The notes below the pieces were generated by a model, which was not told where the DNA came from, ran no database searches, and worked only from the letters and a program-made list of their open reading frames with translations. Position numbers and translations under genes: made by a program. Below, one piece after another: positions 9,468 through 15,773 of a stretch of 64,000 nt of DNA (its first letter is position 1; each line of letters begins with the position of its first letter). Source of the stretch: Escherichia coli. GTDB lineage: Bacteria; Pseudomonadota; Gammaproteobacteria; Enterobacterales; Enterobacteriaceae. The stretch is from NCBI RefSeq assembly GCF_003334405.1, contig NZ_QOWM01000004.1, one strand, 5' to 3'.

Positions 9468-10583
9468 ATGAAAAAGCGGAAAACCGTGAAGAAGCGTTAC
9501 GTTATTGCGCTGGTGATAGTCATCGCCGGACTGATTACGTTATGGAGAATTCTTAACGCACCCGTGCCGACTTATCAGACGCTGATTGTGCGCCCCGGTG
9601 ATTTACAGCAAAGCGTGCTGGCGACCGGAAAGCTGGACGCGCTGCGTAAGGTTGATGTGGGCGCGCAGGTCAGCGGTCAGTTGAAAACTCTGTCGGTGGC
9701 GATTGGCGATAAAGTAAAAAAAGACCAGCTTTTAGGGGTTATTGATCCTGAACAGGCTGAAAACCAGATTAAGGAGGTCGAAGCAACGCTGATGGAGCTA
9801 CGTGCGCAGCGGCAGCAGGCGGAAGCGGAGCTGAAACTGGCGCGGGTGACGTATTCCCGTCAGCAACGTCTGGCACAAACGAAGGCTGTTTCACAGCAGG
9901 ATCTCGACACCGCCGCGACGGAGATGGCTGTGAAACAGGCGCAAATTGGCACCATTGACGCGCAAATCAAGCGCAATCAGGCTTCTCTCGATACGGCTAA
10001 AACCAATCTCGATTACACTCGCATCGTTGCCCCGATGGCCGGGGAAGTCACGCAAATCACCACTCTGCAAGGCCAGACGGTGATTGCCGCACAACAAGCA
10101 CCGAACATTCTGACGCTGGCAGATATGAGCACCATGCTGGTAAAAGCGCAGGTTTCTGAAGCGGATGTAATCCACCTGAAGCCGGGGCAAAAAGCCTGGT
10201 TTACGGTGCTTGGCGATCCACTGACGCGCTACGAGGGGCAAATCAAGGATGTACTACCGACGCCGGAAAAGGTTAACGACGCTATTTTCTATTACGCCCG
10301 TTTTGAAGTCCCCAACCCCAATGGTTTGCTGCGGCTGGATATGACTGCGCAAGTGCATATTCAGCTCACCGATGTGAAAAATGTGCTGACGATCCCTCTG
10401 TCGGCGTTAGGCGATCCGGTTGGCGATAATCGTTATAAAGTCAAATTGTTGCGTAATGGTGAAACACGCGAGCGTGAAGTGACGATTGGCGCACGTAACG
10501 ATACCGATGTTGAGATTGTCAAAGGGCTTGAAGCGGGCGATGAAGTGGTGATTGGTGAGGCCAAACCAGGAGCTGCACAATGA
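9468..10583 (+). CDS. macA: Macrolide efflux periplasmic adaptor (membrane fusion protein)
   Basis: ORF 9441..10583 starts at an upstream TTG; trimmed to ATG at 9468 ([18 protein letters not shown]); coiled-coil region; stop overlaps the macB start (ATGA at 10580-10583). Confidence 0.9.
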
Positions 10584-12526
10584 CGCCTTTGCTCGAATTA
10601 AAGGATATTCGTCGCAGCTATCCTGCCGGTGATGAGCAGGTTGAGGTGCTGAAGGGCATCAGCCTCGATATTTATGCGGGTGAGATGGTCGCGATTGTTG
10701 GCGCTTCGGGTTCCGGTAAATCGACCCTGATGAATATTCTCGGCTGTCTGGATAAGGCCACCAGCGGCACCTATCGCGTCGCCGGTCAGGATGTTGCCAC
10801 GCTGGACGCCGATGCGCTGGCGCAACTGCGCCGCGAGCATTTCGGCTTTATTTTCCAGCGTTACCATTTGCTTTCGCATTTAACCGCCGAGCAGAACGTT
10901 GAAGTACCCGCCGTCTATGCTGGTCTTGAGCGGAAACAGCGACTGCTTCGTGCCCAGGAGTTGCTGCAACGGCTGGGGCTGGAAGACCGTACAGAGTATT
11001 ATCCGGCACAGCTTTCGGGTGGTCAGCAACAGCGCGTCAGCATCGCGCGGGCATTGATGAACGGTGGTCAGGTAATTCTTGCCGATGAACCAACCGGCGC
11101 ACTGGACAGCCATTCTGGCGAAGAGGTGATGGCGATCCTGCATCAGCTGCGCGATCGTGGGCATACGGTGATTATCGTCACCCACGATCCGCAGGTCGCT
11201 GCTCAGGCCGAGCGGGTGATCGAAATTCGCGACGGCGAAATTGTGCGCAATCCTCCCGCCATTGAAAAAGTGAATGTTACTGGCGGGACGGAACCTGTTG
11301 TCAACACGGTGTCTGGCTGGCGGCAGTTTGTCAGCGGTTTTAACGAGGCGCTGACGATGGCATGGCGGGCGCTGGCAGCGAATAAAATGCGTACTTTACT
11401 GACCATGCTGGGGATTATTATCGGTATTGCGTCGGTGGTTTCCATTGTCGTGGTGGGTGACGCCGCCAAACAAATGGTGCTGGCGGATATTCGTTCTATT
11501 GGTACGAATACTATTGATGTCTATCCCGGGAAAGATTTTGGCGATGACGATCCGCAATATCAGCAGGCGCTGAAGTACGACGACTTAATCGCCATCCAAA
11601 AACAACCGTGGGTCGCCTCAGCCACACCTGCCGTCTCGCAAAACCTGCGCCTGCGTTATAACAATGTTGATGTTGCTGCCAGTGCCAATGGCGTGAGCGG
11701 CGATTATTTTAATGTCTATGGCATGACCTTCAGTGAAGGAAACACCTTTAATCAGGAGCAGCTGAACGGTCGTGCGCAGGTCGTGGTTCTCGACAGTAAT
11801 ACTCGCCGCCAGCTTTTCCCCCATAAAGCAGATGTGGTTGGCGAGGTGATTCTGGTCGGCAATATGCCCGCCAGAGTCATTGGTGTGGCGGAAGAAAAAC
11901 AGTCGATGTTTGGTAGCAGTAAAGTGCTGCGTGTCTGGCTACCTTACAGCACGATGTCCGGGCGAGTTATGGGCCAGTCGTGGCTTAACTCCATTACTGT
12001 CAGGGTGAAAGAAGGATTTGACAGCGCCGAGGCGGAACAGCAACTCACGCGTTTACTTTCACTGCGCCACGGAAAGAAGGATTTCTTTACCTGGAACATG
12101 GACGGCGTCTTGAAAACTGTTGAAAAGACCACACGTACTTTACAACTGTTTCTGACGCTGGTGGCGGTGATTTCGCTGGTGGTGGGCGGTATTGGTGTAA
12201 TGAATATTATGCTGGTGTCAGTGACCGAGCGGACGCGGGAAATTGGCATTCGCATGGCTGTAGGTGCGCGAGCAAGCGATGTTTTGCAACAGTTCCTGAT
12301 CGAAGCCGTACTGGTTTGCCTGGTCGGTGGCGCGTTGGGAATAACACTGTCACTGTTAATTGCTTTCACCTTGCAGCTTTTCTTACCCGGCTGGGAGATT
12401 GGTTTTTCACCGTTGGCGCTGCTGCTGGCGTTTCTCTGCTCGACGGTCACCGGGATTTTATTTGGCTGGTTACCCGCACGAAATGCGGCACGACTGGATC
12501 CAGTAGATGCTCTGGCACGAGAGTAA
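10580..12526 (+). CDS. macB: Macrolide ABC exporter (N-terminal ATPase, C-terminal FtsX-like permease)
   Basis: 648-aa ORF; Walker [13 protein letters not shown] signature LSGGQQQRV; Walker B ILADEPT; hydrophobic C-terminal helices. Confidence 0.92.
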
Positions 12527-12536
12527 TTTTTGAGAT

Positions 12537-12567
12537 AAAAATGCCAGCCGATCGGGCTGGCATTTTG
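12537..12567. terminator. Bidirectional rho-independent terminator shared by macB (+) and cspD (-)
   Basis: Perfect 9-bp stem atgccagcc/ggctggcat (12541-12563) flanked by an A-run upstream and a T-run downstream. Confidence 0.75.
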
Positions 12568-12598
12568 CCTTTAGGATGTACACAATGAGACAGAAGAG

Positions 12599-12823
12599 CT
12601 ATGCGACTGCCGCTTCTACTTCGACGGGCACAATAACACTGGCGTGATTGCCTTTTGGCCCCTGGTGGACATCAAACTGAACGGATTGTCCAGCTTTTAG
12701 CGTTCTGTAACCATCCATCTGAATGGTGGAATAATGAGCGAAAATATCTTCGCCGCCGCCTTCAGGGCAGATGAAACCAAACCCTTTGGCATTGTTGAAC
12801 CACTTAACAGTACCCTTTTCCAT
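12599..12823 (-). CDS. cspD: Cold-shock-domain protein CspD (stationary-phase replication inhibitor)
   Basis: ORF 12599..12853 trimmed to MEKGTVKWFNNAKGFGFI (ATG at 12821-12823); RNP1-like KGFGFI motif. Confidence 0.92.
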   Translation of the reverse strand: MEKGTVKWFNNAKGFGFICPEGGGEDIFAHYSTIQMDGYRTLKAGQSVQFDVHQGPKGNHASVIVPVEVEAAVA

Positions 12824-13496: not shown

Positions 13497-15773
13497 ATGC
13501 TCAATCAAGAACTGGAACTCAGTTTAAATATGGCTTTCGCCAGAGCGCGCGAGCACCGTCATGAGTTTATGACCGTCGAGCACTTGTTACTGGCGCTGCT
13601 CAGTAACCCATCTGCCCGGGAGGCGCTGGAAGCGTGTTCTGTGGATTTGGTTGCGCTCCGTCAGGAACTGGAAGCCTTTATTGAACAAACCACACCCGTT
13701 CTGCCTGCCAGTGAAGAGGAGCGCGACACACAGCCGACGCTGAGTTTTCAGCGTGTACTGCAACGTGCGGTCTTCCATGTCCAGTCCTCCGGTCGCAATG
13801 AGGTTACCGGTGCAAACGTTCTGGTCGCTATCTTTAGCGAACAGGAGTCGCAGGCGGCATATCTGTTGCGTAAACATGAAGTCAGCCGTCTCGATGTGGT
13901 GAACTTTATCTCTCATGGCACGCGTAAAGACGAGCCGACACAGTCTTCTGATCCTGGCAGCCAGCCAAACAGCGAAGAACAAGCTGGTGGGGAGGAACGT
14001 ATGGAGAATTTCACGACGAACCTGAATCAGCTTGCGCGCGTGGGCGGAATCGACCCACTGATTGGTCGTGAGAAGGAGCTGGAGCGTGCTATTCAGGTTC
14101 TCTGCCGTCGCCGTAAAAACAACCCGCTGCTGGTGGGGGAATCTGGTGTCGGTAAAACCGCGATTGCGGAAGGTCTTGCCTGGCGAATTGTTCAGGGCGA
14201 TGTGCCGGAAGTGATGGCTGACTGTACGATTTACTCTCTCGATATCGGTTCTCTGTTAGCGGGCACAAAATATCGCGGCGACTTTGAAAAACGTTTTAAA
14301 GCGTTGCTCAAGCAGCTGGAGCAGGACACTAACAGCATCCTGTTTATTGATGAGATCCACACCATTATCGGTGCGGGTGCAGCGTCTGGTGGTCAGGTCG
14401 ATGCGGCTAACCTAATCAAACCGTTGCTCTCCAGCGGTAAAATTCGTGTAATTGGTTCGACAACCTATCAGGAGTTCAGCAACATTTTCGAGAAAGACCG
14501 TGCTCTGGCGCGTCGCTTCCAGAAAATTGATATTACTGAACCGTCGATCGAAGAAACTGTTCAAATCATCAATGGCCTGAAACCGAAGTATGAAGCGCAC
14601 CACGACGTGCGTTATACCGCAAAAGCGGTGCGTGCGGCGGTAGAGCTGGCGGTGAAATACATTAACGATCGTCATCTGCCGGATAAAGCCATTGATGTTA
14701 TCGACGAAGCGGGCGCTCGCGCACGCCTGATGCCGGTAAGCAAACGCAAGAAAACCGTTAATGTGGCGGATATTGAGTCCGTGGTGGCCCGTATTGCACG
14801 CATTCCAGAGAAGAGTGTTTCTCAGAGTGATCGTGATACCCTGAAAAACCTCGGCGATCGCTTGAAAATGCTGGTCTTCGGTCAGGATAAAGCCATTGAG
14901 GCGCTGACTGAAGCCATTAAGATGGCGCGTGCAGGTTTAGGTCACGAACATAAACCGGTTGGTTCGTTCCTGTTTGCCGGCCCTACCGGGGTCGGGAAAA
15001 CAGAGGTGACGGTACAGCTTTCGAAAGCTTTGGGCATTGAGCTTCTGCGCTTTGATATGTCCGAGTATATGGAACGCCATACCGTCAGCCGTCTTATTGG
15101 TGCGCCTCCGGGATACGTTGGTTTTGATCAGGGCGGTTTGCTGACTGATGCGGTCATCAAGCATCCACATGCGGTGCTGCTGCTGGACGAAATCGAGAAA
15201 GCGCACCCGGACGTGTTCAATATTCTGTTGCAGGTGATGGATAACGGTACGCTGACCGATAACAACGGACGCAAAGCAGACTTCCGTAACGTGGTGCTGG
15301 TGATGACCACCAACGCCGGGGTACGGGAAACTGAGCGCAAATCCATTGGTCTTATCCACCAGGATAACAGCACCGATGCGATGGAAGAGATCAAGAAGAT
15401 CTTTACACCGGAATTCCGTAACCGTCTCGACAACATTATCTGGTTTGATCATCTGTCAACCGACGTGATCCATCAGGTGGTGGATAAATTCATCGTCGAG
15501 TTGCAGGTTCAGCTGGATCAGAAAGGTGTTTCTCTGGAAGTGAGCCAGGAAGCGCGTAACTGGCTGGCCGAGAAAGGTTACGACCGGGCAATGGGCGCTC
15601 GTCCGATGGCGCGTGTCATCCAGGACAACCTGAAAAAACCGCTCGCCAACGAACTGCTGTTTGGTTCGCTGGTGGACGGCGGTCAGGTCACCGTCGCGCT
15701 GGATAAAGAGAAAAATGAGCTGACTTACGGATTCCAGAGTGCACAAAAGCACAAGGCGGAAGCAGCGCATTAA
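13497..15773 (+). CDS. clpA: ATP-dependent Clp protease ATPase/unfoldase subunit ClpA
   Basis: ORF 13482..15773 trimmed to ATG at 13497 ([14 protein letters not shown]) with a GGGGGAGGTG Shine-Dalgarno; two AAA+ modules with Walker A GESGVGKT and GPTGVGKT. Confidence 0.93.

Follow-up and report, generated by a model that had tools for sequence, protein, structure and literature searches.

Two closely spaced Chi sites in Escherichia coli macB are most probably an incidental by-product of coding

The Chi sites of Escherichia coli, their origin in frequently used codons and their strand bias are textbook biology. The octamer GCTGGTGG is the E. coli Chi, a regulatory site for RecBCD (PMC5041463; bioRxiv 10.1101/2021.07.08.451572). 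The K-12 genome carries 1,008 copies, 997 of them (99%) in open reading frames (ORFs), and the CTG|GTG frame makes up 68% of these in-ORF sites (Subramaniam and Smith, bioRxiv 10.1101/2021.07.08.451572). RecBCD acts on a Chi when its approach is from the 3' side, and the cut falls a few nucleotides 3' of the site (PMC5959072; PMC5041463). The 3' flank also matters, with A/G-rich sequence at nucleotides 4-7 being favourable and AAAA/AAGG representing the high-activity class (Taylor et al., PMC5041463). Tandem Chi sites have been described as engineered arrays. These include the triple-Chi substrate pBR322 chi+3F3H, cited in PMC5959072, and three-Chi cassettes whose capture in vivo, 0.586, corresponds to a recognition of 0.255 per Chi when capture by n sites is written as 1-(1-p)^n (Wiktor et al., PMC5829741). 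The literature that we searched did not treat closely spaced Chi pairs or the Chi sites in macB.

The pair described here lies in a 64-kb stretch of E. coli DNA, referred to as the window. The macB gene occupies positions 10580..12526 on the + strand and encodes a macrolide ABC transporter ATP-binding protein/permease of 648 residues according to the ORF and the RefSeq annotation. Its neighbourhood has the order ybjX-macA-macB-cspD-clpS-clpA, which places the window at ~909.8-973.8 kb on the K-12 map, in the + orientation. The macB ORF shows 100% identity to that of K-12-type chromosomes, and 5,425 of 5,426 complete E. coli genomes have it; the matching K-12-type record has recB and recC. Pfam domains on MacB are ABC_tran (residues 24-172), MacB_PCD (272-491) and FtsX (527-641). 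Translation of positions 12140..12217 (+) gives a hydrophobic segment rich in Leu, Val, Ile and Gly (residues 521-546), whose peptide is conserved across Proteobacteria and whose codons yield both octamers. The segment forms the first FtsX-domain helix, which we infer to be TM2 of MacB.

Within it, exact matches to GCTGGTGG were found on the + strand at 12157-12164 (Chi #1) and 12175-12182 (Chi #2), as a sequence-only reading of this DNA had reported. The two sites are 18 bp apart from start to start, with a 10-bp spacer, CGGTGATTTC, between them, and their + strand context in macB reads ...ctgacGCTGGTGGcggtgatttcGCTGGTGGtgggcggt.... Both are in the frame xxG|CTG|GTG|Gxx. Chi #1 consists of the third base of T526, L527 (CTG), V528 (GTG) and the first base of A529, giving acG CTG GTG Gcg (T-L-V-A). 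Chi #2 consists of the third base of S532, L533 (CTG), V534 (GTG) and the first base of V535, giving tcG CTG GTG Gtg (S-L-V-V), and is followed by G-G. Nucleotides 4-7 of the 3' flank are TGAT for Chi #1 (2/4 purines) and GCGG for Chi #2 (3/4 purines). The top tetramers for activity (AAAA, AAAG, AAGG and AAGA) include neither flank, and both flanks are typical of the 239 Chi sites of the genome sample introduced below, among which the distribution peaks at 2 purines.

The sequence-only reading had also held that both sites are suitably oriented, and three lines of evidence agree with it: the map position, the GC skew, which is positive across the entire 64-kb window, and the strand bias of Chi. 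Among 22 K-12-type pieces of 50 kb, right-replichore pieces carry 90 Chi on the + strand vs 27 on the - strand, and left-replichore pieces carry 31 on + vs 91 on -. Since the window lies in the right replichore, Chi sites on its + strand belong to the replication-co-oriented class. Compared with E. coli Chi sites at large, the two in macB would be ordinary on their sequence, with the exact octamer, the co-oriented strand, a place within an ORF and the CTG|GTG frame, none of these being atypical. In sequence, host and orientation, each octamer qualifies as an E. coli Chi site.

RecBCD reads Chi from the 3' side, so an enzyme coming from a terminus-side break and bound for oriC should read both macB sites productively. 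Loaded at a terminus-side end, for example at a collapsed rightward fork, RecBCD would move towards lower coordinates, reaching Chi #2 (12175) first and Chi #1 (12157) 18 nt further on. Recognition of a Chi would switch the enzyme, with a nick a few nucleotides 3' of the site and loading of RecA onto the 3'-ended strand leftward; the RecA-loaded stretch would comprise the 5' part of macB, macA and sequence beyond. The nick is predicted near 12186-12188 on recognition of Chi #2, the first-met copy, and near 12168-12170 if Chi #2 is missed and Chi #1 is recognised. Because a switched enzyme would ignore the remaining copy, the pair should behave as a single, slightly stronger hotspot. At the recognition per site cited above, its capture probability should be ~0.44 (0.445) vs ~0.26 for a single Chi. 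Like the engineered arrays, then, the macB pair is predicted to act as one higher-capture site. Unlike them, it is natural, has two copies, lies in a coding helix and comes with no evidence of design or selection for the tandem arrangement.

This expected gain in capture is the basis of one alternative, in which the doublet is a selected, 'reinforced' Chi whose tandem sites raise the probability that RecBCD stops and shield origin-proximal genes after fork breakage. We consider this very unlikely, for reasons that come from several of the comparisons below. At the level of the sites themselves, the formula 1-(1-p)^n does mean that several Chi raise capture (PMC5829741), but the flanks TGAT and GCGG are average and fall outside the activity-boosting AAAA/AAGG class. 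The window moreover already holds 14 co-oriented Chi in 64 kb, so one extra site changes little. At most, a close pair would raise the probability of RecBCD capture modestly and locally.

We regard it as highly probable that both octamers are true Chi sites in the correct orientation, that they arose as a by-product of coding, and that their pairing is incidental. The Leu/Val-rich helix of MacB is written with the commonest Leu (CTG) and Val (GTG) codons of E. coli. Where the codon before CTG-GTG ends in G and the codon after it starts with G, GCTGGTGG results, as happens here twice. The earlier interpretation had likewise taken the doublet as probably incidental and had derived it from LVVGG/LAGG codons. 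The incidental origin stands, as does LVVGG at Chi #2, but LAGG is absent in frame: AGG strings occur only in the wrong reading frame in the region of the macB Chi sites.

We compared the abundance of Chi with what sequence composition and codon usage predict. The window contains 20 Chi (14 on +, 6 on -) vs 1.8 ± 1.2 in dinucleotide-preserving shuffles, an excess well known for Chi across the whole E. coli genome. For a genome-wide estimate, the K-12-type record NZ_CP169633.1 was sampled in 22 pieces of 50 kb taken every 210 kb (1.1 Mb, 24%), all of them outside the window and thus independent of the macB pair. The sample holds 239 Chi, or 217 per Mb, which equals the published 1,008 per genome; the density in the 64-kb window is 312 per Mb. 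Synonymous shuffling within ORFs yields 110 ± 8 Chi per 1.1 Mb vs the 239 observed, 4.5 ± 2 vs 20 for the window, and P = 0.057 for each macB Chi. Single-codon usage thus accounts for only about half of the Chi abundance in the 1.1-Mb sample, and over window and sample Chi is ~2-4x commoner than protein sequence and single-codon usage predict. That shuffling under-predicts Chi overall counts against the by-product reading. The remaining genome-wide excess comes from codon-pair bias or from selection; that debate is old and beyond the macB locus to settle.

The spacing of the pair was assessed on two scales. With the window's 20 sites placed at random, a pair at <=18 bp arises with P = 0.10, and a same-strand pair with P = 0.06, which bears out the initial impression that a close doublet is mildly unusual. 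The 1.1-Mb sample contains two neighbour pairs at <=18 bp and three at <=30 bp. The pairs at <=18 bp are in putP (L011:30443-30462, record position 1,080,443; +/+, 12 bp apart) and in yhhJ (L023:42507-42523, record position 3,612,507; -/-, 9 bp apart). The range up to 30 bp adds a pair on opposite strands in ydcR (L013:27436-27468; -/+, 25 bp apart), and a +/+ pair 33 bp apart is found in metH (L026:10705-10745). The putP and yhhJ pairs, the tightest in the sample, are both same-strand, replication-co-oriented and located in membrane-transporter genes, as the Leu/Val codon argument predicts. The macB pair differs from these two only in position and in its spacing, which at 18 bp is wider.

A homogeneous Poisson process leads to an expectation of 0.93 pairs at <=18 bp and 1.55 pairs at <=30 bp per 1.1 Mb, with P = 0.24 for at least two of the former and P = 0.20 for at least three of the latter. 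The observed counts are nominally ~2x this plain expectation, a point in favour of a reinforced Chi that disappears once peptide composition is modelled. Expectations for pairs from the synonymous shuffles (0.29 and 0.39) were dropped, since shuffling predicts 110 Chi where 239 are found and the unscaled values are therefore too low. We used instead an analytic model built on the position-by-position peptide and on global codon frequencies, and scaled it to the Chi density found in the sample. Peptide heterogeneity in this model lifts the pair expectation 1.5-1.7-fold above that of a homogeneous process, to 1.6 pairs at <=18 bp and 2.3 pairs at <=30 bp vs the observed 2 and 3. More close pairs than chance, as a selected cluster would imply, were thus not found; tail probabilities of the observed counts under the Poisson and codon-aware expectations are about 0.20-0.48. 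Counting close Chi pairs had been proposed at the outset as the way to judge the doublet, and in this 24% sample of K-12 their frequency came out chance-like.

Scaled to the genome, the sample suggests ~8 pairs at <=18 bp (Poisson interval 1-30) and ~13 pairs at <=30 bp (3-37), from small numbers (2-3 events) in 24% of the chromosome. Roughly 5-13 close Chi pairs per E. coli genome are implied. The macB pair is mildly unusual for a single window, yet is expected several times per genome. As a calibration, an E. coli genome should carry several close Chi pairs (the sample scales to ~8-13), mostly in Leu/Val-rich membrane-protein genes, and such a pair needs no flag. Peptides compatible with a pair occur at only ~50 places in 1.16 Mb, macB among them. 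For this peptide, with codons chosen independently, the probability of the doublet at the macB place is only ~0.001-0.003, which counts against the by-product reading.

A selected doublet should also have both copies conserved beyond neutral synonymous turnover, which is not what strains and species display. Within E. coli, the intact 26-bp doublet is present in 4,369 of 5,426 genomes, as judged by a doublet-spanning 30-mer with >=28 contiguous matches, a threshold at which the 26-bp doublet is always covered. Chi #1 is invariant in five E. coli alleles, and alleles from divergent strains drop Chi #2 through synonymous third-position changes. The allele GCTGGTAG (V534 GTG>GTA, Chi #2 lost) is carried by 488 genomes, including O157:H7 and Nissle 1917, and the allele GCTAGTGG (L533 CTG>CTA, Chi #2 lost) by 234 genomes; 334 further macB-bearing genomes differ otherwise at the doublet 30-mer. 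Together, these synonymous changes have removed Chi #2 from at least 722 genomes, or at least 13% of the 5,425. Two distinct synonymous alleles in 488 and 234 genomes imply that at least two independent silent losses of Chi #2 have spread widely, which argues against a reinforced Chi. On this sequence evidence, Chi #2 is dispensable. Cheng and Smith, in the 1980s, reportedly observed that GCTAGTGG retains partial Chi activity.

Across species, we scanned one genome per species with the invariant 29-residue peptide downstream of the pair as the key, permitting every synonymous codon, so that the tested region itself was unconstrained. The scan yielded at least 120 loci, an arbitrary sample; the matches listed did not include Salmonella, Klebsiella or Shigella. 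The species set is phylogenetically non-independent, and the statistics given here ignore shared ancestry. Among the Enterobacteriaceae matches listed, Chi #1 is present in 18 of 23 species, an octamer at the Chi #2 place in 10 of 23 and both in 9 of 23. In three of these nine two-octamer species the peptide is SLLVGG and the octamer lies 3 nt downstream in other codons (cTG CTG GTG Ggc). That both octamers recur in 9 of 23 species, the second having been remade in another register in three, would fit a reinforced Chi and counts against the by-product reading. E. albertii, the closest relative among the matches listed, has neither Chi (ACG CTG GTA GCG ... TCT CTG GTA GTA), which argues the other way. 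Among the other Enterobacterales listed, Chi #1 is found in 1 of 9 and an octamer at the Chi #2 place in 2 of 9.

The comparison with Pseudomonas bears most directly on the second octamer. Of the 30 Pseudomonas macB orthologs with the SL(V/L)VGG peptide among the matches listed, 16 have GCTGGTGG where E. coli has Chi #2. The Pseudomonas RecBCD recognises GCTGGCGC and not the E. coli Chi (PMC5959072). The octamer is therefore as frequent at that place in a genus where it is unreadable as Chi, so that the second octamer is explained by GC-leaning codon usage on a conserved peptide. This comparison illustrates how the octamer can arise from coding constraints alone. With the strain losses, the 9 of 23 species and the 16 of 30 Pseudomonas orthologs among the matches listed, there is no sign that the pairing of Chi in macB is selected.

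To place Chi #1 among the synonymous sites of the gene, we aligned the codons of K-12 macB with those of 22 other Enterobacteriaceae among the matches listed. The in-frame octamer from T526 to A529 (Chi #1) is identical in 17 of 22 species (77%) and ranks 6th of 384 macB windows, for which the median identity is 7%. Chi #1 is thus unusually well kept and its codons are among the best-conserved synonymous positions of macB, which counts against the by-product reading and could favour a reinforced Chi. The codons of Chi #2, however, are ordinary, with pairwise codon identities of 0.41, 0.83, 0.47 and 0.26. The octamer that ranks first is not a Chi: it is the adjoining GGTGGCGG (L-V-A-V), identical in 95%. 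The third base of A529, outside Chi #1, is conserved as well. The conservation at Chi #1 thus extends to non-Chi neighbours and is not peculiar to the octamer. We treat it as a side observation and not as evidence for a selected doublet.

A patch at 12101-12136 that extends to ~12166 has the strongest synonymous-site conservation in macB across the 23 Enterobacteriaceae species among the matches listed. Its core, codons 508-519, is the top 12-codon window of the gene, with a pairwise codon identity of 0.82 vs 0.52 gene-wide. The rare codons TTG (L511) and ACA (T518), along with AAA and CGT, are invariant in it, and the blocks cTTGAAAAC and GAAAAGACCACACGTAC are near-invariant.

This pattern raises the possibility that Chi #1 is conserved independently of its being a Chi, through a constraint at the nucleic-acid level on a ~70-nt stretch of macB (~codons 508-530). 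The high identity of codons 508-519 with their rare TTG and ACA, the lead of GGTGGCGG over Chi #1 and the conserved third base of A529 all point that way. The intervening codons 520-525 are nevertheless unconserved (pairwise identity 0.31-0.64), so that the patch and Chi #1 may be separate, and the alignment rests on 22 related species. A search of 11800-12700 also returned no sigma-70-like promoter, terminator, inverted repeat or Rfam family (E <=1). We therefore judge such a constraint unlikely. There is very little chance, in our estimation, that Chi #1, and hence the doublet where both copies are present, is kept by selection within a conserved nucleic-acid element at ~12101-12166 in the 3' third of macB. 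If it were, the element could be a preferred point for RecBCD stopping and RecA loading, or an unrecognised regulatory RNA or DNA site that includes Chi.

The pair also invites a further explanation, that it is the remnant of a local tandem duplication of 18 bp (6 codons), ACGCTGGTGGCGGTGATT / TCGCTGGTGGTGGGCGGT. A repeat search finds an imperfect 12-nt direct repeat, CGCTGGTGG(C/T)GG, at 12156..12185 (+), in two copies exactly 18 bp apart with 11/12 identity. This repeat and the Chi doublet are one and the same feature. Aligned by eye, the two 18-mers agree at 12 of 18 positions, and the peptides that they encode, TLVAVI and SLVVGG, have x-L-V in common. Beyond the octamer, however, similarity is low. 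Orthologs throughout the Proteobacteria have the pattern x-L-(V/I)-x-x-x / S-L-(V/L)-V-G-G but encode it with very different codons; a duplication, if there was one, would thus be ancient and would have lost its DNA identity long ago. Close relatives also differ at the repeat positions, as in E. albertii with GTA twice, and gene length and peptide are uniform across orthologs. An origin of the Chi pair in a recent duplication was rejected, because orthologs display the pattern with other codons at a uniform gene length, and duplication of any age is, in our assessment, an extremely improbable source of the pair. We thus retain the by-product reading, in which common Leu and Val codons on a conserved peptide would have produced both octamers.

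The repeat search also identified a Chi-like octamer with 7/8 matches, GCTGGTGT (M-L-V-S), at 12211..12218 (+), 36 bp past Chi #2. It cannot become Chi without an amino-acid change and is therefore an internal control for how CTG-GTG codons are used; in the Enterobacteriaceae codon alignment it is kept at its macB place in 12 of 22 species among the matches listed. The same octamer is part of a 14-nt near-repeat of the Chi #1 region (GCTGGTGGCGGTGA / GCTGGTGTCAGTGA). Elsewhere in the window, a looser same-strand pair lies in clpA on the + strand at 13983-13990 and 14129-14136, 146 bp apart, and is the sole other Chi pair within 200 bp.
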